A stretch of DNA of 64,000 nt from a virus (IMGVR_UViG_3300025889_000070), one strand, 5' to 3'. Shown: positions 3,010 through 23,487, numbered from the stretch's first letter. Numbers and translations: made by a program. The notes: generated from the sequence alone by a model not told the origin.

Positions 3010-3741
3010 ATGGCTAGTAATATCAATGCAAATAACATAGACGGTACTTATCCTATCGCAGGCCAGGACAATGATAGTCAGGGTTTCCGGGATAACTTTA
3101 CTAATATCAAAACAAACTTTACAAATGCTAAGTCAGAGATTGAAGATCTCCAGAGCAAGGTAGTTCTAAAGAGCGCTTTGACAGGCACTAGTTTAAGCAA
3201 TGCTGGCGGCGGCTCTATTATGAGCGATTTCCGTTTCCAGGACATGAGCGAAACTAGAGTAGCAAAAGGAACAACGTCTGGTACAGTAACATTTGATTAC
3301 ACTGGCGGTGGTTATCAAACAGTAACAACCAGTGGCAGCATCAGTCTATCATTTAGTAATTTTAGTGCAAGTGGCACACTTAGCAGACTAAGAGTAGAAA
3401 TTACAGTAGCAAACGTTGCTCACACTGTTACACTACCTAGTAGTGTTACTATTGGTGCCAACACACTACAAGGCATCGTTCCAGCAACAAAAGTTATTAC
3501 ATTTGACGCTATCGGAACATATATTTTTGAATTTACAACAGATGATGCTGGTACAACAGTAGCAGTAAATGATCTTACTCGCAGTCGCGTAAAAGCAGAC
3601 GTTCGCACCCCAGCTAATATTGGACAGAGTGGCGACGTAGCAGGGCATGTAACAGTGGATAGCAGTTACATTTATGTTTGCACAGGCACATATGACGGTT
3701 CAACCGTTATTTGGAAACGTGTGGCAGTAAGTGCATATTAA
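3010..3741 (+). CDS. Virion structural protein (tail/baseplate-associated)
   Basis: T/S/G-rich beta-strand composition, N-terminal NDSQGFRDNF plus short coiled coil; late-like motif at 2976-2982. Confidence 0.6.
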   Translation: MASNINANNIDGTYPIAGQDNDSQGFRDNFTNIKTNFTNAKSEIEDLQSKVVLKSALTGTSLSNAGGGSIMSDFRFQDMSETRVAKGTTSGTVTFDYTGGGYQTVTTSGSISLSFSNFSASGTLSRLRVEITVANVAHTVTLPSSVTIGANTLQGIVPATKVITFDAIGTYIFEFTTDDAGTTVAVNDLTRSRVKADVRTPANIGQSGDVAGHVTVDSSYIYVCTGTYDGSTVIWKRVAVSAY

Positions 3742-3756
3742 ATTAAGGGTTAAACA

Positions 3757-4269
3757 ATGACTGAATATGGACCAAACTTTTTTAGAAAATACCTAGACAT
3801 TTTAGAAGCAACAACTGGTGCACAGGATGCAGAGGCAGCAGAAATACTCGCTCAGAAAATAGCAAAAGCTGGCAATACGGCTGCAGGTAAAAACATGCAA
3901 GATACTGCAATGGCAGATGTGATGCAGGGTGGACAGACCCTTAACCAAACACTAGGAAGCAAAGGTGCAGCTAATTTACCCGGAGTTACTCCTCAGGTTC
4001 AAGCAGATGCTCGAGCTGCTGCTGCCCAACTACAACAACAGCAACAAGCAGCCATGGCTACTCCAGGCGCAGGCGTTGGCGCCGTACTTCGTGGACGAAA
4101 AACTAGTGCAACAATGGGTAGTCAGCCTTACGGGTCTAAGGGCGAAATTGATATTGGCGCACAAACCGAATTAGATAAAGCTCAAGCACAAGCTAAGGCA
4201 AATCAACAGCGCAGAGCTGCCGCCGCATCCCAAAACCAACTTAATAATCAAGGCGGCGATTATAATTGA
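3757..4269 (+). CDS. Ala/Gln-rich protein, possible internal head protein
   Basis: N-terminus FRKYLDILE|A resembles N-termini of the 37-49 kb cluster; low complexity. Confidence 0.5.
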   Translation: MTEYGPNFFRKYLDILEATTGAQDAEAAEILAQKIAKAGNTAAGKNMQDTAMADVMQGGQTLNQTLGSKGAANLPGVTPQVQADARAAAAQLQQQQQAAMATPGAGVGAVLRGRKTSATMGSQPYGSKGEIDIGAQTELDKAQAQAKANQQRRAAAASQNQLNNQGGDYN

Positions 4270-8340: not shown

Positions 8341-9258
8341 ATGAAAGAACTCTGGACTGAAAAGTACAGGCCGGACACACTTGATGGTTATGTGTTTCGT
8401 GATGATGCCCAAAAGCATCAGGTCGAAGGATGGATCGCCAGTGGTATGATCCCGCATTTGTTGTTTAGTGGGGCACCTGGTGTAGGCAAGACTACACTTG
8501 CAAAGATCCTTGTCAAGCAACTCGGAATAAACGATTTAGACGTGCTGGAGATCAATGCCAGTCGTGAGAACAGTGTAGACAATGTGCGTGAACGTATCAC
8601 TAACTTTGTAGCAACTATGCCTTTTGGTGAATTTAAAATAGTACTACTTGATGAAGCAGATTACATTTCGCCAAACGGACAGGCAGCATTGCGTGGTGTT
8701 ATGGAAACGTATAGCAGCACCGCACGTTTTATCCTAACTTGTAACTATCCTAATAAGGTTATTCCTGCGCTACACAGTAGATGTCAGGGCTTTCATATCG
8801 AGAAGATTGATACCACAGAGTTTACAGCACGTATTGCTACGGTGTTGGTAACAGAAGGCGTTGAGATTAATCTGGACACGCTGGACAGTTATGTAAAGGC
8901 TACATATCCTGATCTACGCAAGTGCATCAACCTAGTGCAGATGAACAGTGTAGATGGCAAACTAGTACGTCCACAGGAATCAGACAGCGCAATGGCTGAC
9001 TACAGGCTAGCAGTTGTTGACTTGTTTAAGGAAGGCAAACTGTTAGAAGCACGTAAACTACTGTGCAGTCAGGTACGTGCAGATGAAATGGATGAACTGT
9101 TTCGCTGGATGTATGACAATCTAGAACTGTGGAGCGACACACAGGAAGGCCAGGATCAAGCAGTGCTAATCATTGCTAAGGGCCTGCGTAACATTCCAAT
9201 GGTAGCGGATCAAGAGATCAATTTATCGGCTACGCTTATTGAGTTGACTCAGATATAA
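8341..9258 (+). CDS. Clamp loader AAA+ subunit (RFC small subunit / T4 gp44-like)
   Basis: WTEKYRP, GAPGVGKTT, LEINAS, LLDEAD, LHSRC. Confidence 0.93.
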   Translation: MKELWTEKYRPDTLDGYVFRDDAQKHQVEGWIASGMIPHLLFSGAPGVGKTTLAKILVKQLGINDLDVLEINASRENSVDNVRERITNFVATMPFGEFKIVLLDEADYISPNGQAALRGVMETYSSTARFILTCNYPNKVIPALHSRCQGFHIEKIDTTEFTARIATVLVTEGVEINLDTLDSYVKATYPDLRKCINLVQMNSVDGKLVRPQESDSAMADYRLAVVDLFKEGKLLEARKLLCSQVRADEMDELFRWMYDNLELWSDTQEGQDQAVLIIAKGLRNIPMVADQEINLSATLIELTQI

Positions 9259-9865
9259 ACTTATACATGTAACGTGTCATAATACTCTGACGTAAATTGC
9301 AGGGTATAGGATCACATCTATGCCATGCAAATTCATCCACACGCATTAGCCAACTCAAGTTTGGTGTAAATGGTAACCGTTTTATTTCCTGATCATTTTT
9401 GTCAGTAAGGCTTGTTCCCCAATGTTCTCCTCCATCACAGTACACATAAACTTGCCAAGCCAGATTCATAGTATAACCATCGTAGTGATTATGAACACCA
9501 TAGCCAGCATAGTCTTCCCAGAGGCTACTAGTAGTCCAACGATCACCAGCATACTCTAATCCTTGTAAACCATAAACTGCCTGTTGTATCTCTGTATGCT
9601 CCATAATGTTCAAGTAGTATTCCTGCCAAAAATCTATAGTGCCTTGCTCGGGTATGTAGATAGCACGATTTTGGTTAAATTCAGTGGGATTTTTACGAGT
9701 TTTATGGGTACCCATATCAGGCCAATTCTGCTTACAAAGTTCAAATAGCTCAGGATCTAGCGTATCTTCCAGGACAACATGCCAGTAGGGTTCCCATTCA
9801 ACAGTGGCTTGTTGTATTTTTGCAACAGTATATTTTCTATATTTTTCCCAGAAAATGGTAGACAA
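9236..9865 (-). CDS. 2OG-Fe(II) oxygenase-like protein
   Basis: HYD (HxD) followed by distal H (AWH) and R (LRQSI) of the DSBH fold. Confidence 0.65.
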   Translation of the reverse strand: MSTIFWEKYRKYTVAKIQQATVEWEPYWHVVLEDTLDPELFELCKQNWPDMGTHKTRKNPTEFNQNRAIYIPEQGTIDFWQEYYLNIMEHTEIQQAVYGLQGLEYAGDRWTTSSLWEDYAGYGVHNHYDGYTMNLAWQVYVYCDGGEHWGTSLTDKNDQEIKRLPFTPNLSWLMRVDEFAWHRCDPIPCNLRQSIMTRYMYKFISESTQ

Positions 9866-9924
9866 AAGTGTATCCTGTGCTATTATATAAGAGTAAGTTT
9901 AACAAGGACCAAAAGGATCAGTAC

Positions 9925-10662
9925 ATGGCCCGCTTCGATTACAATACTACTTATCCTCTCCGTGATGTAATGGCCGCGAGTGTGATGGCCTATCGCATTA
10001 ACGATGATCAGTATGTTACTCATACTATTCCGGACGATACTTGGAACAGTTCGGAACAATCCGATTTTCGTATCAAGTATCAGGCTAATAAGCACCTGAT
10101 GCTGTACAGCATTACAGACGCTACTCCGCCAGCAACACTGATGCATCCCAAAGTCAACTATTATTTTGACAACGTCGCTGACGACGAAGACTTTGCTGTG
10201 GCTGATGAAATTATCAGTTACTATACTGGGTTGATGTTCAAAGCTATTGGGGGCAAGATTAACGAGTTTGAAGAGCGAGTGCTTGCTCTTGTTAAGGCTG
10301 GCGAAGTTCGCGCCAGTGATTTTGGTATCGTTGCTAGCCTGCCCAAAAGTTACTACCGCAGTCTTGAACGTGACCGTGTTGAAGAGCAACAGCGTGAGCT
10401 CAGCGATTCCAGTGAGTATGTTGGCACTGTTGGACAGACTGTGGATCTAGACATTGAGATCATGCGGTTTAACTACATCCAGAAACTTAACTGCTATGTG
10501 GTCAATGCTCAGGCATCTGGAAATCTTGTTGTGTTCTTTACTAGCAATGAAGATTTTAACGGCCCAGATAAACTCAAGATTCGTGGTCGTGTTAAGCGGC
10601 ACCAAACCAGCAACTACCACGGCGGTAAGGAATCCGTTCTCAACTATGTTAAGAGGATCTAG
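9925..10662 (+). CDS. Hypothetical protein with probable C-terminal OB-fold
   Basis: YVGTVGQTVDLDIE...KIRGRVKRH...KESVLNYVK; start moved to ATG 9925. Confidence 0.6.
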   Translation: MARFDYNTTYPLRDVMAASVMAYRINDDQYVTHTIPDDTWNSSEQSDFRIKYQANKHLMLYSITDATPPATLMHPKVNYYFDNVADDEDFAVADEIISYYTGLMFKAIGGKINEFEERVLALVKAGEVRASDFGIVASLPKSYYRSLERDRVEEQQRELSDSSEYVGTVGQTVDLDIEIMRFNYIQKLNCYVVNAQASGNLVVFFTSNEDFNGPDKLKIRGRVKRHQTSNYHGGKESVLNYVKRI

Positions 10663-10664
10663 TT

Positions 10665-10958
10665 ATGGACAAAGTTTTTATGCTGCTATTCAGTTTTGTG
10701 CTCGCCACCCCAGACGGGCCCAGGGACGAAGTACTTCATGTCTACAGTGCTAAACACTTTGTTAGCAAAGAAGCATGTGAAGAAACATTAAGTAACTGGA
10801 GTTACCTGATCAAGAATGGAGCAGTTACCCAGTTAAATAACATGCTCAAAGAAGGATATGAGGTAAATCTTAAGGGTGTGGTTTGTGCTGAACAGCCTCC
10901 TAAAATTGAGGAAAAGTCAGCACCAGCCAAAAATGACGTGTCCGGTAACAGGGACTAG
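10665..10958 (+). CDS. Hypothetical protein with hydrophobic N-terminus
   Basis: 97-aa ORF; 3' end overlaps the structured element. Confidence 0.55.
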   Translation: MDKVFMLLFSFVLATPDGPRDEVLHVYSAKHFVSKEACEETLSNWSYLIKNGAVTQLNNMLKEGYEVNLKGVVCAEQPPKIEEKSAPAKNDVSGNRD

Positions 10959-11157
10959 TAGGGCATTGCGGCCCTATGACGAGAAGTGGCTGAGAACCAC
11001 AAAACTAACGCACGATGCCAAGTAGGCGAGGGGCCGGGGCTCCTCGGTGAACCAAAACATGGTTGTATGCTCGAAAGGCATAACCTATTGGGAAGAACGA
11101 GAGACGACCTCTGGTGGAGCCATCAATAAACAACGGCGCGGAAGCCAAGTTGTCCCC
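10951..11157 (+). ncRNA. Candidate structured non-coding RNA, family not recognised
   Basis: About 55% GC by hand count in an AT-rich genome; at least 8 short hairpins including GTGG-CTGAGAA-CCAC and a C-GAAA-G tetraloop; no ORF of 60 aa or more; strand assumed. Confidence 0.6.
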
Positions 11158-11169
11158 TAAATTTTTTGG

Positions 11170-11197
11170 TTGACACCACTTAAATCTGTGCTATCAT
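11170..11197 (+). promoter_or_regulatory. Sigma70-type early promoter
   Basis: TTGACA (11170-11175), 16 nt, TG-n-TATCAT (11192-11197). Confidence 0.65.
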
Positions 11198-11226: not shown

Positions 11227-11403
11227 ATGAAAAGAAATAGTAAAGATCAAGAAGAATATGATAAGGCAATCCAAGAGTATCTCCAAAACGGTGGTAAGAT
11301 TACCGTGTGTGCTAGGGGCGATACTGGGTTAGAAGAAGGAGATACTAATCCCTGGAACCGTGCTAAAAAACCAGGCCGCCCAAAATCGGTTGACACCAAG
11401 TAG
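11227..11403 (+). CDS. Small early protein (58 aa), not in the ORF track
   Basis: AAGGAG RBS; MKRNSKDQEEYDKAIQEYLQNGGKITVCARG...KSVDTK*. Confidence 0.75.
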   Translation: MKRNSKDQEEYDKAIQEYLQNGGKITVCARGDTGLEEGDTNPWNRAKKPGRPKSVDTK

Positions 11404-11417
11404 ATTCATGTTAGTAT
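11390..11417 (+). promoter_or_regulatory. Sigma70-type promoter embedded in the end of the small ORF
   Basis: TTGACA (11390-11395), 16 nt, TG-n-TAGTAT (11412-11417). Confidence 0.55.
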
Positions 11418-14371: not shown

Positions 14372-16321
14372 ATGCCTACATCAATTTCTAACTTATTTAA
14401 GAAAAACTATGATAGTAGAGTTAGCAAAACCTATACCATAGACGAATATCTAGATTTATGTAAAAAAGATCGCCTAGCATATGCTACCGCAGCAGAACGT
14501 ATGTTAGCTGCTATTGGGGAACCAGTTTTACTTGACACCAGTAAAGATCCCAGACTAAGTCGTATTTTTTATAACAGAACAGTTAGGGTATATGAAAATT
14601 TTCGCGAATTCTATGGCATGGAAGATGTGGTAGAACGCATTGTGGGTTATTTCCGTCATGCTGCTCAAGGCCTTGAAGAGCGCAAGCAGATACTTTACCT
14701 ACTAGGACCAGTGGGTGGTGGTAAGAGTAGCCTGGCTGAAAAGCTAAAAGAACTCATGGAAAAATTACCCATCTATGTACTAGCAACAGAAGATGGCGAG
14801 ATTAGTCCAGTATTTGAAAGTCCACTAGGACTATTTGCCAATGAAAATTACTATGACGTTATGCTGGACAAATATGGTATCGAATCCAGATATCTAACCA
14901 GTATCATTAGCCCATGGGCCATAAAGAGATTACGAGAATACGAAGGTGACATTGGACGTTTCCGTGTTACCAGTATTATACCCAGCAAACTGGAACAGAT
15001 TGCTGTAATGAAAACAGAGCCCGGTGACGAGAACAATCAGGATATTAGCACACTGGTAGGCAAGGTAGATATTCGTAAACTAGAACACTTTAGTCAGAAT
15101 GACACAGACGCCTACAGTTATAGTGGTGGGTTATGCCGTGCTAACCAAGGCATGCTAGAGTTCGTTGAAATGTTTAAGGCGCCTATTAAAGTTCTACACC
15201 CACTGCTAACTGCCACACAGGAAGGCAACTATGTGGGCACAGAGGCTATTAGTGCCATCCCTTTCCAGGGTATCATACTGGCACACAGCAACGAATCAGA
15301 GTGGCAGACATTTAAAAACAACAAAAACAATGAAGCATTCTTGGATCGTATTAGTATTGTTAAAGTTCCTTACTGCTTGAGGGTAGACGAGGAAAAAAGT
15401 ATATATGAAAAAATGATCCATGCTAGCGGATTACACAACGCAGCCTGCGCTCCACAAACAGTGGAAATGTTAGCGCAGTTCAGCGTACTAACCAGGCTCA
15501 AAGATCATGATAATAGCACACTGTTTAGCAAGCTAAGAGTTTATAACGGCGAGAACATCAGAGAGCAGGATCCCAAGGCCAAAACTATTCAGGAGTACAG
15601 GGATGTGGCTGGTGTTGACGAGGGCATGGAAGGCATCAGCACACGGTTTGCTTATAAAATACTAAGTCAGACGTTTAACTTTACCCCCGAAGAAATAGCT
15701 GCTGATCCTGTTCATATGATGTTTGTGTTAGAAAATGCTATTAAACGCGAGCAGTTTGGACAGGAACGAGAAGAACGTTATCTAGATTTTATTAAAAGTG
15801 AACTAGCTAACAGATACGCTGAATTTTTAGGTAATGAGATACAAAAAGCATATCTAGAAAGTTACAAGGAATACGGCCAAAACTTATTTGATCGTTATGT
15901 AGAATATGCTGATGCATGGATTCAAGATCAGGAGTTTAAAGATCCTGATACTGGATTATTAATGGACAGATCACAACTCAATGACGAACTAGAAAAAATT
16001 GAAAAACCTGCTGGTATTGCCAACCCCAAAGACTTTAGGAATGAGATTGTAAATTTCTGTTTACGGGCTCGAGCCAATCCTGAAAATGGTGGTAATAATC
16101 CAGTTTGGACAAGTTATGCTGTACTAAGAGACGTTATTGAAAAGAAAATGTTTAGTCAAGTGGAAGACTTACTCCCTGTAATAAGTTTTGAAGGAAAAAA
16201 AGATAAAGATCTCGAGAAAAAACACAATGACTTTATGGACCGCATGGAAGAACGTGGGTATACTCCCAGACAAATCCGTAGGTTAGTAGAATGGTATATG
16301 CGTATCCGAAAGTCTAACTAG
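14372..16321 (+). CDS. prkA: PrkA/YeaG family serine kinase / AAA+ ATPase
   Basis: LLGPVGGGKSS, ANQGMLEFVEMFKAPIK, NESEW, FLDRI; 649 aa. Confidence 0.96.
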   Translation: MPTSISNLFKKNYDSRVSKTYTIDEYLDLCKKDRLAYATAAERMLAAIGEPVLLDTSKDPRLSRIFYNRTVRVYENFREFYGMEDVVERIVGYFRHAAQGLEERKQILYLLGPVGGGKSSLAEKLKELMEKLPIYVLATEDGEISPVFESPLGLFANENYYDVMLDKYGIESRYLTSIISPWAIKRLREYEGDIGRFRVTSIIPSKLEQIAVMKTEPGDENNQDISTLVGKVDIRKLEHFSQNDTDAYSYSGGLCRANQGMLEFVEMFKAPIKVLHPLLTATQEGNYVGTEAISAIPFQGIILAHSNESEWQTFKNNKNNEAFLDRISIVKVPYCLRVDEEKSIYEKMIHASGLHNAACAPQTVEMLAQFSVLTRLKDHDNSTLFSKLRVYNGENIREQDPKAKTIQEYRDVAGVDEGMEGISTRFAYKILSQTFNFTPEEIAADPVHMMFVLENAIKREQFGQEREERYLDFIKSELANRYAEFLGNEIQKAYLESYKEYGQNLFDRYVEYADAWIQDQEFKDPDTGLLMDRSQLNDELEKIEKPAGIANPKDFRNEIVNFCLRARANPENGGNNPVWTSYAVLRDVIEKKMFSQVEDLLPVISFEGKKDKDLEKKHNDFMDRMEERGYTPRQIRRLVEWYMRIRKSN

Positions 16322-16330
16322 GTAGATACC

Positions 16331-17599
16331 ATGTCTAATATTATAGACAGACGCCTCAATCCTAGAGATAAGACCATTAAAAACAGACAAAAGTTTGTAC
16401 AGCGCAGCCGCGAACAAATAAAGCGAGCCGTAAAGGAAAGTATTGATACTGGTAACATTGCTGACATCGAAAATGACAAGGCAAGAATAAGAGTTGGCGG
16501 TATTAATGAACCAAGATTTACCATTGATCCAAAAACTGGGGATAAAAAATATGTATTACCAGGGAACAAAGAACATGTGGTGGGTGATAGACAGGATAAG
16601 CCTAACGAGGAGTCTGGTGGCGGGGGTAAAGATGGCGGACTGGGTAGAGGCGAAGACGATTTTGAATTTGTCTTAAACAAAGATGAATACCTTGATTTTA
16701 TTTTTCAGGACATGGAATTACCAGATCTAGTAAAAAAGAAAATCAAAGATGTTGTAAAGTTTAAACTACGCAGAGCAGGTTACACTAACCAGGGTTCCCC
16801 TAATCAATTAGATGTTATAAGAAGTTTAAAAAACAGTATAGGCAGACGAATAGGATTGCGTAGACCTAAGAATCAAGAAATAGATGAATTAGAAAAAGAA
16901 CTAACTACATGTAATGATCAGGATCGTAAACAAGAAATATTAGAGCTACTAACCTATCTAAGAAAGCGGCAAATAACAGTTCCCTGGTTAGATCCTGTTG
17001 ATGTAAGATACCGTGCTTTTGTCAATCATCCAGAACCTACAACAAAAGCAGTAATGTTCTGTTTGATGGATGTTAGTGCCAGCATGGGACAACGTGAAAA
17101 AGATTTGGCAAAACGTTTCTTTTTCCTACTACATATGTTTTTAATTCGCAAATATGAAAAGGTTGATATTATCTTTATTAGGCATCACGAAGAAGCCAAG
17201 GAAGTCGACGAAGAAGAATTTTTTACAAGCAGAGAAAGCGGAGGAACAGTTGTAAGCAGTGCCTTATGTTTAGCAAAGGAAATAATTAAAAAACGTTACA
17301 ATTTAGATGAGTGGAATATTTATGTAAGTCAAGCCAGTGATGGTGATAATTATAGCAATGATCAAGAAGCCTGTACTAATGAAATGAAATACCTACTGCC
17401 ACTTGTTCAATATTTTGCTTATATAGAAATAGGCGGAGGATATGATTATCTGGGGGTGATGCAAAATCATACACTAAGTCAGTTATGGTTTAACTATAAA
17501 GCATTAACTAAAGAATTTCCACACCTACGTATGAAAGAAATAGAAGAAGTTCCTGATATCTGGAAAGTGTTCAAAGAACTTTTCGGAAAGGAAGAATAA
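16331..17599 (+). CDS. yeaH: YeaH/YhbH family (DUF444) vWA-like protein
   Basis: IIDRRLNP, AVMFCLMDVSASM, FIRHH, SGGTVVSSAL, SDGDN. Confidence 0.95.
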   Translation: MSNIIDRRLNPRDKTIKNRQKFVQRSREQIKRAVKESIDTGNIADIENDKARIRVGGINEPRFTIDPKTGDKKYVLPGNKEHVVGDRQDKPNEESGGGGKDGGLGRGEDDFEFVLNKDEYLDFIFQDMELPDLVKKKIKDVVKFKLRRAGYTNQGSPNQLDVIRSLKNSIGRRIGLRRPKNQEIDELEKELTTCNDQDRKQEILELLTYLRKRQITVPWLDPVDVRYRAFVNHPEPTTKAVMFCLMDVSASMGQREKDLAKRFFFLLHMFLIRKYEKVDIIFIRHHEEAKEVDEEEFFTSRESGGTVVSSALCLAKEIIKKRYNLDEWNIYVSQASDGDNYSNDQEACTNEMKYLLPLVQYFAYIEIGGGYDYLGVMQNHTLSQLWFNYKALTKEFPHLRMKEIEEVPDIWKVFKELFGKEE

Positions 17600-19053
17600 T
17601 GACAAAACTTCTTTACACAGACAATGAATGGACTTTTGACAAAATACACAGAGCTGACGATGCTATTAGAGAAATTGCAGAACAAGAATTGCGTCTAGAC
17701 ACTTATCCTAATCAAATTGAAATTATTGGCAGTGATCAGATGCTGGATGCCTATAGCAGTCATGGGCTACCACTGATGTATAATCACTGGAGTTTTGGTA
17801 AACATTTTCTAAGTCAAGCATATAATTATAGAAAAGGGTATACTGGCCTGGCGTATGAAATTGTAATAAACAGCAATCCTTGTATTAGCTATCTCATGGA
17901 AGAAAATTCAATGACCATGCAGACACTTGTTATTGCTCATGCTGCCTATGGACACAATCACTTTTTCAAAAATAATTATCTGTTTCGTCAATGGACAGAC
18001 GCAGAAGGAATTATAGATTACCTAAACTTTGCTAAAAACTACATAAAGAAGTGCGAGGAAAAACACGGCACACAACTAGTAGAAGAAACACTGGATGCTT
18101 GTCATGCTATTATGGATTATGGTATTGACAAATATCAGAGACCTACAAAACTCAACAAGCAAAAAGAACTAGAGCAACAGATTGCTAGAGAAGAATATGT
18201 ACAACAACAAGCAAACCAGTTATGGTCAACTTTGCCTAAACGTAAAAGGAAAGTTGTAGAAGTTAAGGATGATAAGTTTCCTCAAGATCCGCAGGAAAAT
18301 ATCCTATACTTCTTAGAAAAAAACTCACCTAGTTTAAAGAGTTGGCAAAGAGAGATTATAAGAATTGTTCGCAAAATAAGCCAGTACTTCTACCCACAGC
18401 GGCAAACCAAACTAATGAACGAGGGCTGGGCTAGTTTTACACACTATTATATCATGAACCGGTTGTGGGAAAAGGGTTTAATAACTGATGGCAACTATAT
18501 CGAGTTTATACACAGCCACAGCGGTGTACTAAGGCAACTGGATCATGATCACAAATACTACAATGGTTTTAATCCCTATGCACTGGGCTTTGATATGTTT
18601 ACAGACATACGAAGAATATGTAGTGAACCCACAGCAGAAGACTGTGAATATTTTCCTCACTTAGCAAACACTGAATGGCTACCTGCTTGTTTGGATGCCG
18701 TTAAAAATTATCGTGACGAGAGTTTTATTACACAGTTTTTGAGTCCAGCCATCATGCGTAAATGGCGCTTGTTTGAAATAGATGACCAACAGAGCAACAA
18801 CTACTACGAGGTAAGTGGTATTCAGGATAGTCGCGGCTATGCCAGGATCAAAGAGTCACTAAGCCATCAGTATAGCGTAAGCAAATTTCAGCCTGACATC
18901 CAGGTTGTAGATGCTAACCTTAAGGGTGATAGAACATTAGTCCTAGAGTATACAAAATATAACCAGAGAGAACTTGACAAAAACAAGGATAAGGTATTAG
19001 AATATATAAAATACCTTTGGGGGTATAGTGTAGACCTAAGGACAGCTATTTAA
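17599..19053 (+). CDS. spoVR: SpoVR/YcgB family protein
   Basis: GLPLMYNHWSFGK, LAYEIVINSNPC, HAAYGHNHFFKNN, TKLMNEGWASF. Confidence 0.96.
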   Translation: MTKLLYTDNEWTFDKIHRADDAIREIAEQELRLDTYPNQIEIIGSDQMLDAYSSHGLPLMYNHWSFGKHFLSQAYNYRKGYTGLAYEIVINSNPCISYLMEENSMTMQTLVIAHAAYGHNHFFKNNYLFRQWTDAEGIIDYLNFAKNYIKKCEEKHGTQLVEETLDACHAIMDYGIDKYQRPTKLNKQKELEQQIAREEYVQQQANQLWSTLPKRKRKVVEVKDDKFPQDPQENILYFLEKNSPSLKSWQREIIRIVRKISQYFYPQRQTKLMNEGWASFTHYYIMNRLWEKGLITDGNYIEFIHSHSGVLRQLDHDHKYYNGFNPYALGFDMFTDIRRICSEPTAEDCEYFPHLANTEWLPACLDAVKNYRDESFITQFLSPAIMRKWRLFEIDDQQSNNYYEVSGIQDSRGYARIKESLSHQYSVSKFQPDIQVVDANLKGDRTLVLEYTKYNQRELDKNKDKVLEYIKYLWGYSVDLRTAI

Positions 19054-21547: not shown

Positions 21548-22078
21548 ATGTTACCCCGTAGACATTTCTTTACGGGTGTGCCTGGTAGTCGCTGGAGTGG
21601 CGTTAGCCAAGACATAGAGTCAAGCAAACTCTACGACACATCAGACCGCACCCCCCAAAGAACATACACTCATAACCAATATTCCGGACATGTGGGTGCC
21701 TATTTTGGCGCCGGCATGGAATTCCCTGCTAGTTTGGATCCAGCTATCCTAGATGCTCCATATACAGGTTCGGGATGTCGTTTACATAAAAGTCACGAGT
21801 GGGCTTATATGTTGGATGACATCACCAACACATATCCGGACTGTTGGATAACTTTAATTTACAGACCTGATGCTGCCAGTTTTGAATGGTGGAAGCAGGC
21901 TGGTGGTTGGAATATAAGTTATCCTAATTATGACTTTTATGTGGATGATGCTGGTATGCAACACCATATAAAGCTAATGAACGAAGCTATATTAGAGTTT
22001 TCTCATAGCCACAATTTAGTATGGCACCATATAGCAAAACACGCAGATATATTAAAAACAACATGGAAACAATCCTAG
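21548..22078 (+). CDS. Hypothetical protein, weakly sulfotransferase/P-loop-like
   Basis: FFTGVPGSRWSG; AAGG RBS. Confidence 0.55.
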   Translation: MLPRRHFFTGVPGSRWSGVSQDIESSKLYDTSDRTPQRTYTHNQYSGHVGAYFGAGMEFPASLDPAILDAPYTGSGCRLHKSHEWAYMLDDITNTYPDCWITLIYRPDAASFEWWKQAGGWNISYPNYDFYVDDAGMQHHIKLMNEAILEFSHSHNLVWHHIAKHADILKTTWKQS

Positions 22079-23487
22079 CACTACTAGTAGGAACTCTTTA
22101 CGGACTTGTGATTGGTATAATACCAAGCGCGGGCGCGACTACTGGTTTGGTTGCACTTTTTGGTGTGATACATTACTTTGTTAGTGAGCCATATTTAGGA
22201 GTAGTTTTTCTAATGGCAGTGGTTGCAGCAAGTACAACAGGTGATAGTTTTACAGGTATACTACTAGGCATTCCAGGTGCTAACAGCGCAGCCGCTACAA
22301 TGGTAGATGGCTTTCCACTAGCACAGCAGGGCCGTGCAAGTTATGCTATCAGTGCAGCAGTTACTACAAGTACAGTTAATGGATTGCTTTGGGGATGTTT
22401 AGTTTTCATGTTGCTTCCCTGGTATAGCAATTTGTTAATGATATTGGGTATACCTGAACTGTGGGCGTTTATAGTTCTCGCTCTTGCTACGGTTGGTTTT
22501 GTAAGTAACAGTTATTGGATTAGAAGTTTAGTTGCTATTTGCGCAGGAATATTTCTAGGACTAGTGGGCGTAGATCCTACAAATAACGAACCTAGGTTTA
22601 CACTGGGTTGGTTCTATTTGCAAGATGGACTACAATTGATGCCAGTAGTTGCTGGTTTGTTTGCAGTACCAGAATTAGTAGCAGGATTAAAGCGTACAAG
22701 TACAGCACGTATTGTTCGTAATGAACTTTGGCAAGGAGTACGTGCAACCTGGCAGCATCGTTGGCTAGCATTGCGTGGTGGTTTTATAGGTGCATTTATT
22801 GGATTGTTACCTGGACTTGGTGGCGCAATGGCGGACTGGATGGCATATGGTAGTGCTGTGGCAGCAAATCCAAAAGAACAGTTTGGTAATGGTAACATCA
22901 AAGGCGTCATAGGACCAGAAGGTGCTAACAATGCACAAAAGGCAACGTCAATGATTCCTACTGTGTTGTTTGGTATTCCAGGTGCTCCGTTTGCCGCAGT
23001 GTTAATGGCATTGTTCATGTACCTAAACTTTGAACTGGGCACGCCAGATATAGCAGCAGACACAGAATTTTTCTTTAGTCTTGCGTTTGGTTTTCTATCA
23101 GCAACAGTACTAGTAGCAATCCTGTGTTTAGTTTTTATACGAACTATCACACGTATTTGTACAGTACCTTACAAGTATTATTTCCCAGTACTATTGTTAG
23201 TAATAATTTGGGCAAGTATGCAGTACACGGGCGGATGGGAAGATTTTGCAGTATTGGCAGCATTTAGTTTATTAGGCATACTATGCAAAAACTATAAGTT
23301 TAGCAGACCAGCACTTCTAATGGCGTTTATACTCGCTAACAAGATTGAGAGTTTTACCCTACAACTCACAAGTCTTTACACAGTAGGGGATTTAATAACG
23401 AGACCTATATTTATGGCAGTGATGCTGTTTACTGTAGGTATCTTCGCATATAGTTTAAAGAGGAAAGGATCTATAGATTATGCGTAA
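22063..23487 (+). CDS. tctA: Tripartite tricarboxylate transporter large membrane subunit TctA
   Basis: G.IPG, ILLGIPG..SAAAT.VDGFPLAQQGRA, GLLPGLGG, GPEGANNA; multiple TM helices; start ATG 22063. Confidence 0.92.
   Translation: METILALLVGTLYGLVIGIIPSAGATTGLVALFGVIHYFVSEPYLGVVFLMAVVAASTTGDSFTGILLGIPGANSAAATMVDGFPLAQQGRASYAISAAVTTSTVNGLLWGCLVFMLLPWYSNLLMILGIPELWAFIVLALATVGFVSNSYWIRSLVAICAGIFLGLVGVDPTNNEPRFTLGWFYLQDGLQLMPVVAGLFAVPELVAGLKRTSTARIVRNELWQGVRATWQHRWLALRGGFIGAFIGLLPGLGGAMADWMAYGSAVAANPKEQFGNGNIKGVIGPEGANNAQKATSMIPTVLFGIPGAPFAAVLMALFMYLNFELGTPDIAADTEFFFSLAFGFLSATVLVAILCLVFIRTITRICTVPYKYYFPVLLLVIIWASMQYTGGWEDFAVLAAFSLLGILCKNYKFSRPALLMAFILANKIESFTLQLTSLYTVGDLITRPIFMAVMLFTVGIFAYSLKRKGSIDYA

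Follow-up and report, generated by a model that had tools for sequence, protein, structure and literature searches.

What fills the GC-rich stretch behind a small early operon of a large phage, and what could it do there? The stretch lies at 10951-11157 of the window, by which we mean the whole 64,000-nt piece of viral DNA that was analyzed (IMGVR_UViG_3300025889_000070), and its G+C content is 55.1% as compared to 38.5% window-wide, in line with the roughly 55% counted by hand in a preliminary description. From this one sequence, that description had proposed a structured phage non-coding RNA unlike known classes, built from consecutive helices, and had named covariation among homologues as its own test. 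The test proved positive, a check against Rfam matched no known family, and the proposal of an RNA unlike known classes stood, with no match in Rfam or ARAGORN.

A non-coding stretch at the end of a probable early operon

The stretch had been described as free of ORFs. Four ORFs of 35-49 codons each do cross it, but their frames are not kept in homologues. The longest in the forward direction (10986-11129, a 47-aa frame) carries many stops in homologues of the L038 group, and RNA homologues are separated by 1- and 2-nt indels, which makes the stretch non-coding. Single-sequence folding of the island does not go beyond chance (MFE -67.8 kcal/mol, z = -1.05, equaled by 30 of 200 shuffles; z = -0.78 for the minus strand), and with a z of only -1.05 folding energy was dropped as evidence for an RNA. 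On the comparative evidence presented below, the GC-rich stretch is a real, folded, non-coding RNA of the phage. The presence of G-U pairs in helices P3 and P6 and in the non-canonical (NC) stem of a kink-turn places the RNA on the plus strand. The boundaries in Table 1 were derived from homologues in tRNA arrays, which fill inter-tRNA gaps of ~200 nt; the 5′ end can be placed only roughly (10932-10937), the 3′ end falls on the U-run or just before it, and the start, stop, and stability of the transcript are likewise those predicted from sequence.

The source of the window is a large phage whose replication module is of the T4 type, and the genes of the window include those for a clamp loader (8341-9258), PhoH, a PrkA/DUF444/SpoVR triad, MazG, DnaJ, and TctA. 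The closest cultured relative by clamp loader is the Pseudomonas jumbo phage PA5oct (56% identity), in which a covariance model gave no copy of the RNA, a weak negative as the first-look filter passed 0 candidates. Among the other genes, the complete triad of PrkA, DUF444 (YeaH), and SpoVR (YcgB) at 14372-19053 (+; E-values of 1e-170, 2e-150, and 1e-164) would be an auxiliary stress or starvation-signaling module, and TctA is a full-length tricarboxylate-transporter membrane subunit (22021-23487, +; PF01970, E = 9e-95).

The RNA closes a unit that runs from a 243-aa gene through a 97-aa ORF to the RNA itself (Table 1). Sigma-70-like sites are no more numerous in this region than in shuffles. 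The U-run begins 7 nt past P6, and a simple terminator scan made no call there. With no Pfam, PDB, or Atlas family and with a sole other match that is distant, in Streptomyces phage Zuko, the 243-aa protein was dropped as a functional clue; it is a putative partner of the RNA. Behind the RNA, a 58-aa ORF has its own strong promoter and is 72-76% identical in L004 and L005. A likeness to the RNA-polymerase-binding domain of SutA (PF20661) spans its residues 12-35, with E = 1.8e-5 and a score of 24.4 bits, under the cut-off of 29.3, and the product may serve the phage to modulate the RNA polymerase of its host. The 9-mer TTGACACCA is shared by 11170-11178 and 11390-11398 and opens two consecutive early promoters that lie 220 nt apart.

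Table 1. Predicted features of the RNA and its operon, in window coordinates
Feature	Position	Strand	Remarks
Sigma-70-like promoter, probable operon start	9859-9886	+	TAGACA-16-TATTAT with TG; 10/12 matches
243-aa gene	9868-10662	+	upstream of the RNA; phrog_2319
97-aa ORF	10665-10958	+	last codons overlap P1; stop is the UAG of CUAGU
Whole RNA	10932-11161	+	~225-230 nt; R1/R2 match at 10932-11010, 3′ modules placed via alignment A3
Leader	10934-10939	+	GACGUG (consensus ACGYG); last G opens P1; columns C7 and G10 at least 90% conserved in 53 sequences
P1 hairpin	10940-10955	+	GUCC/GGAC, loop GGUAACAG; overlaps end of the 97-aa ORF
Junction P1-P2	10955-10959	+	CUAGU; invariant in 53 sequences, as fixed by the search pattern
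P2 hairpin	10959-10976	+	UAGGGC/GCCCUA
Junction P2-P3	10977-10985	+	UGACGAGAA (consensus A-UGAY-N0-2-GAAG); G48, A49, G53, A54, A55, and G56 of A4 invariant, partly by construction
P3 hairpin	10986-11000	+	GUGG/CCAC, loop CUGAGAA
A-rich linker	11001-11016	+	consensus AAMAAAAG-; A4 columns 86-95
P4 hairpin	11017-11027	+	GCC-AAGUA-GGC; invariant in the window lineage
P5 hairpin	11028-11045	+	GAGGGGC/GCUCCUC, loop CGGG (11035-11038)
Lineage-specific insert	11046-11102	+	57 nt; two hairpins, 11050-11064 and 11066-11082, the latter with a GAAA loop
P6	11103-11154	+	GACGAC (11103-11108)/GUUGUC (11149-11154); encloses the kink-turn hairpin
Kink-turn	11113-11146	+	NC stem GGU (11113-11115)/GCC (11144-11146)
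Kink-turn core		+	G16-G17-A18 opposite G41-A42-A43; 3-nt bulge GCG (11138-11140)
Kink-turn C stem, P7		+	GCC (11119-11121)/GGC (11135-11137); 13-nt loop
3′ tail	11155-11158	+	CCCU; pairs with P5-loop GGG(G) (11036-11039) as a pseudoknot
U-run, probable transcript end	11162-11167	+	read from the sequence
Sigma-70-like promoter, strong	11170-11197		between the RNA and the next ORF
58-aa ORF	11227-11403	+	next ORF
Sigma-70-like promoter	11390-11417		

Homologues in phage and metagenome contigs

The first homologues were reached via proteins adjoining the RNA on viral contigs, and a search pattern was derived from the 5′ part that they have in common. This pattern matched in 13 viral contigs and at 84 metagenome loci, where the cores came to 65 distinct sequences, and a wider one added 7 viral contigs for a total of 20; altogether, ~70 distinct homologues of the RNA were gathered from viral and metagenome contigs. 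Across L001-L003 the RNA is 83% identical as compared to ~70% for the DNA of flanking ORFs, and further contigs bear shorter versions in this position. The genomes of 185,579 prokaryote species (596 Gb) contained no match to either pattern, and BLAST searches with the window element and G+C-rich members against 50,697 GenBank phage records gave either nothing or chance matches within genes.

Model R1 finds a single copy in the window, at 55.5 bits. Model R2 was built from other lineages, with many tRNA-array copies and zero sequences from the window lineage, and has a single match in the 64 kb, at 10932-11010 (43.2 bits; E ~1e-10, a value that, like all from R1 and R2, is rough owing to a shortened calibration). 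Each homologous locus holds one R1 copy, with the exception of L101, a contig whose two diverged copies (3257-3440 and 3918-4160) are separated by ~660 nt; P2 of the second copy reads GAGG/CCUC, its 3′ domain contains a large insert, and its pseudoknot spans 6 bp (UAGUGA/UCACUA). A weak 5′-domain match of 26 bits at 4499-4587 of L023 falls within an 838-aa ORF and is doubtful, being either chance or an embedded relic.

Known RNA classes were searched for in the same sequences. At gathering scores, none of the 4227 models in Rfam 15 matched the window; with E up to 10, nothing fell over the element and two chance matches touched its 3′ flank. Over 36 homologous loci, Rfam 15 returned tRNAs and unrelated weak matches only. 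ARAGORN called 0 tRNA or tmRNA genes in the 64-kb window, and the Rfam models for tRNA and tmRNA were silent on the element. Judged from these sequences, the family is widespread in large uncultured phages and consists of 150-230-nt structured RNAs, so far only in phage and metagenome contigs. We found no description of it in the Rfam 15 catalogue or the searchable literature; it could be an anonymous entry among 8,495 anonymous phage RNA candidates from IMG/VR (PMC10690425).

Three hairpins and conserved junctions form the 5′ domain

The 5′ domain, as represented by the 53 sequences of alignment A4, is laid out as a leader (ACGYG), P1 (5 bp), CUAGU, P2, A-UGAY-(N)-GAAG, P3, and an A-rich linker, and the window copy has every one of these parts. 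Helices P1-P3 are paired in 91-92% of cells as compared to 42-53% when the partner strand is slid (91.3% and 42-47%, respectively, in the 53 sequences), and the covariation score of the domain is 0.374 against 0.176 in shuffles, with 0 of 500 shuffles as high.

Each of the three helices varies in sequence while staying paired. Family-wide, four of the five P1 pairs vary on both sides with 92.7% of cells paired (100% in the window lineage), and the pair at columns 13/26 is seen as GC, CG, AU, UG, UA, and GU. In P2, pair 34/56 is GC in 25, AU in 20, and GU in 4 sequences. The P2 core GGG/CCC is set by the search pattern; the next pair changes from G-C to A-U in 6 of 33 sequences obtained with the wider pattern or a model, and is mismatched in none. 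In P3, pair 68/84 is CG in 30, UA in 16, and UG in 3 sequences.

The junctions are, by comparison with these helices, constant. The invariance of CUAGU is fixed by the search pattern, yet the motif is present in all extra R1 matches, and that of the UGACGAGAA junction is partly built in, most of its letters being fixed by the pattern. The possibility that CUAGU and AUGAUGA form a box C/D-like or sarcin-ricin motif was rejected, as it clashes with the Watson-Crick covariation at pair 34/56. By eye, the ACGYG leader has no pairing partner, and a role for it as one strand of a closing helix was rejected for want of a consistent partner.

A variable 3′ domain ends in a predicted kink-turn hairpin

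The 3′ domain differs more between lineages. In the position of P4, L022 has GGCA-AGU-UGCC and GC-rich lineages have GACCNC-GNRN-GNGGUC (by eye). P5 is 95.6% paired, and its GG/CC becomes AA/UU in L006 and L097. Neither the medium form (L016) nor the short form (L009) has the insert that follows, and in alignment A3 the whole 11046-11102 block is deleted in L016 and L018; by eye, all long forms bear some hairpin at both positions, with varying sequence. P6 is 97.8% paired, with an outer pair that is AU in 10, GC in 4, and GU in 1 sequence, and is predicted independently by RNAalifold. Together with those in the 5′ domain, compensatory changes support P1, P2, P3, P5, and P6 as sequence-predicted helices of the family. 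For the window lineage, the fold model is 90% paired as compared to 35-48% when slid.

Inside P6, the window reads GGUGGAGCC ... GGCGCGGAAGCC, and the comparative data support a canonical kink-turn here. Pairing of the C stem P7 is complete (100%), with CG, UG, and UA pairs. With an alignment-free, strict kink-turn pattern, 38 of 54 family members match as compared to 8.5 expected and a maximum of 17 in shuffles.

In the short form (~150 nt; L009 3281-3470, L011, L012, and L019), P4, P5, and the pseudoknot are missing, while the 5′ domain and the kink-turn hairpin are retained, the latter also serving as terminator stem; in L019 and L039 the C stem itself is swapped for a loop made of a U-run. 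Short-form homologues have their U-run 4 nt past P6; a separate hairpin with a U-run is seen in L006 and L016, which are long forms.

This architecture allows the helices proposed in the preliminary description to be sorted. All are present in the window sequence where it had placed them, and the first four (TAGGGC/GCCCTA, GTGG/CCAC, GCC/GGC, and GAGGGGC/GCTCCTC) are conserved as P2, P3, P4, and P5, respectively; where the proposed fold did not hold was in its boundaries, its closing helix, and its helices on the 3′ side. AACCA/TGGTT and TATGC/GCATA belong to the lineage-specific insert, being 60% and 45% paired in 15 sequences. AGAG/CTCT is not conserved (40% paired), nor is the end pairing GGGAC/GTCCC (73% paired, 0 compensatory changes). 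The same applies to ACAAC-GGC/GCC-GTTGT, which is 87% paired with 0 compensatory changes, is missing in the short form (by eye), and competes with the better supported P6, kink-turn, and P7. As for tertiary motifs, the P3 loop had been called T-loop-like, and its sequence is not conserved; the GNRA argument has no support from conservation either, the GAAA loop being confined to the closest relatives. The proposed start at 10951 had missed P1 at 10940-10955, which moves the beginning of the RNA ~15-20 nt upstream, into the end of the 97-aa ORF.

Kissing loops and a pseudoknot are supported by complementarity

Two long-range contacts would fold this architecture further. In most lineages, the P1 loop can pair with the P3 loop (GACU/AGUC, UUGUC/GACAA, UGGUG/CACCA, and UGGUUA/UGACUA). 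Their longest match averages 4.05 nt as compared to 3.47 ± 0.14 when loops are re-dealt, a value reached by 0 of 10,000 permutations (p<1e-4), and a kiss of at least 4 bp is possible in 76% of the family as compared to 46% after permutation (p<1e-4). A P1-loop/P3-loop kiss is thus supported by sequence complementarity in most lineages; in the window itself, the complementarity covers 3 bp only (CAG/CUG).

The second contact, a pseudoknot that joins the 3′ tail to the loop of P5, is supported in the same manner. Loop and tail are complementary over at least 4 bp in 83% of 29 distinct members as compared to 45% with tails permuted (0 of 1000 permutations reach 83%), and the paired sequences differ by lineage (UAGG/CCUA, UCAGG/CCUGA, UCUGG/CCAGA, and UGGUGG/CCACCA). 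In the window, GGGG/CCCU amounts to 3-4 bp, including one G-U pair and one G taken from the P5 stem. Family-wide, the upstream loop partner of the tail is normally P5. An alternative partner, GGG at 11090-11092, is paired throughout alignment A3, and the tail was reassigned from it to the P5 loop, where loop and tail covary between lineages; within the window, either the P5 loop or this GGG is a possible partner.

The RNA lies behind one gene in marine loci and often within tRNA arrays elsewhere

In 28 marine loci, the RNA is downstream of the 243-aa gene every time, sometimes with small ORFs between, and no protein neighbor is common to the lineages. In other lineages it is often found among tRNA genes on the same strand (L022, L078, L050, L116, L119, and others). 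It occupies the 217-nt gap from tRNA-Thr to tRNA-Ser in L022 and 201 nt from tRNA-Ser to tRNA-Val in L116, a 161-kb contig, and in L119 (372 kb, with 22 tRNAs in 14 kb) it ends 5 nt ahead of tRNA-Pro. In these arrays a tRNA gene follows directly, without a terminator. Immediately upstream of the RNA in L063 is a tRNA-like element (3953-4032, minus strand) that ARAGORN calls as an odd tRNA with a 4-nt anticodon and that has a weak mascRNA-like Rfam match of 26 bits.

No constant gene lies downstream of the RNA, which is followed by the 58-aa ORF with its separate promoter, by genes on the reverse strand, or by tRNAs. The missing constant gene and the intervening promoter make this setting speak against a riboswitch, and the location inside tRNA arrays together with an elaborate conserved core makes it speak against a mere terminator.

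Possible functions

The reading that we prefer, and to which we give an even chance with its structural claims included, is that of a stable RNA that acts in trans by binding a partner. Anatomically, invariant junctions that a predicted kiss, pseudoknot, and kink-turn would keep in place put the RNA with the partner-binding or catalytic type. That it is a stand-alone gene is supported by its occurrence in inter-tRNA gaps, the lack of a common neighbor protein, the promoter at 11170-11197 downstream, and, L101 apart, the single copy at each locus. In the window, the RNA would be the last element of an early operon transcript, with the P6/kink-turn hairpin and the U-run of the RNA itself as its end. 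In giant phages, tRNA processing would excise it from between tRNA genes; the placement in arrays suggests that the ends of the RNA are set in this way there, with the mature form starting a few nucleotides ahead of P1. The RNA would then accumulate in a stable and compact form and act in trans, which is the weakest step of this mechanism.

Within this mechanism, the invariant junction nucleotides would bind one specific partner, most probably a protein of host or phage that has to do with translation or tRNA, and the RNA would serve as decoy or as scaffold of a ribonucleoprotein as opposed to a regulator of the neighboring gene. The connection with translation and tRNA is solely one of gene position, and the window lineage has no tRNA gene in its 64 kb. 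To our knowledge, bacteria do not generally have kink-turn-binding proteins of the L7Ae type, and the role of many kink-turns is one of architecture only.

There is an outside chance that the family is a new class of catalytic or ligand-capturing phage RNA: it could be a ribozyme with tRNA or early transcripts as its substrate, or else an aptamer that, in free form, captures a host metabolite or an immune signaling nucleotide. If true, such a class would be carried by jumbo and T4-like phages of marine, freshwater, groundwater, and soil habitats. Taken separately, we consider a ribozyme unlikely. A self-cleaving or RNA-processing activity would help to cut polycistronic tRNA or early transcripts, with the junction nucleotides as the active site and the kiss, pseudoknot, and kink-turn holding the fold together. 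Invariant junctions combined with a compact tertiary fold are typical ribozyme anatomy, and the RNA would have both, with ~20 invariant junction nucleotides (most letters fixed by the pattern) framed by variable helices and three tertiary devices that back a compact fold; it also sits in transcripts that need processing. However, ordinary tRNA-processing enzymes already account for excision in arrays, the RNA is bigger than small self-cleavers, no cleavage-site signature was recognized, and no Rfam ribozyme model matches with E up to 10.

It is rather unlikely that the RNA is a cis-acting 3′-end element, inactive in trans, that terminates the early operon and protects its mRNA against 3′ exonucleases. 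Its unvarying place behind the same 243-aa gene in the 28 marine loci fits such an element, as do the U-run or separate terminator hairpin that comes next and, in the short form, the P6 hairpin that itself precedes the U-run. Against this stand the tRNA-array copies, which run straight into a tRNA gene without a terminator, and the conservation of the RNA, which is better than that of adjoining coding DNA. A terminator, moreover, can do without invariant junctions, a kink-turn, a pseudoknot, or kissing loops.

Three consecutive hairpins, P1-P2-P3, with a predicted contact between loops 1 and 3, recall the D, anticodon, and T arms of a tRNA, and in giant phages the RNA is located in tRNA arrays. 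A tRNA-like decoy of this kind would divert host enzymes or defense nucleases that act on tRNA. We judge it quite improbable: the element is unseen by ARAGORN and the Rfam tRNA model and is without an acceptor stem or a T-loop or D-loop consensus, while the loop contact is Watson-Crick, variable in sequence, and almost lost in the window lineage (3 bp). Finally, a small-molecule aptamer, working as a riboswitch or as a free sponge for a metabolite or immune second messenger, is very improbable, since the pseudoknot, kink-turn, and conserved junction that recall SAM-I-like riboswitch aptamers come with no constant downstream gene, a promoter between the RNA and the next ORF, an occurrence between tRNA genes, and no match to a riboswitch model.

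Significance and comparison with known systems

Complex-fold orphan RNAs are rare, and several earlier ones became riboswitches, ribozymes, or RNA-only assemblies. The family described here would add to them an RNA with a well-determined architecture and three independent tertiary devices, carried by phages that range from marine T4-like phages of ~40% G+C to G+C-rich contigs, the largest of 372 kb. The role of tRNA arrays in infection and in evading tRNA-directed defenses is an active research topic, and the RNA offers a concrete, clonable target on how large phages use RNAs other than tRNA. Adding the family to the RNA catalogue would end the annotation of such gaps as empty.

Several known systems share part of this picture. 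The kink-turn has the signature of those in SAM-I P2 and rRNA Kt-7 (an NC stem with G-A by the C stem on one strand, and a 3-nt bulge and then G-A-A on the opposite strand), and this likeness is one of sequence signature and conservation, of motif as opposed to family. The GGUGGAG ... NNN-GAA wording is, we assume, also close to that of the SAM-I kink-turn, which likewise works beside a pseudoknot. The remainder of the RNA is unlike SAM-I, with no Rfam match at E up to 10 and a setting that is not that of a riboswitch.

The Y RNAs (YrlA, RF02553) are phage-borne, modular, protein-binding RNAs of ~100-200 nt that occur near tRNA genes. Unlike YrlA, the present RNA is without a tRNA-like T-arm module and has no Rfam match, and no Ro/Rsr gene was seen among its neighbors. 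GOLLD and ROOL RNAs are three to four times larger than the members of our family and form multimers. GOLLD (RF01998) and ROOL (RF03087) are ornate and linked to phages or prophages, often adjoining tRNA genes (PMC12286853). Their Rfam models match neither the window nor the homologous loci, and the present family, unlike them, was not found in the cellular genomes searched.

By setting, and judging from sequence not by relationship, the closest precedent is the pair of species 1 and 2 RNAs of T4 (rnaC and rnaD). With R1 and filters off, the best score over 66000-76000 of T4 was 4.1 bits at rnaD (E = 2.9), and rnaC shows a tRNA-like T arm in its sequence. According to the T4 annotation, these RNAs are small and stable and lie beside or inside the tRNA cluster of a large lytic phage. 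The window copy, unlike them, is near no tRNA; the copies in L022, L116, L119, and others resemble them in sitting in tRNA clusters.
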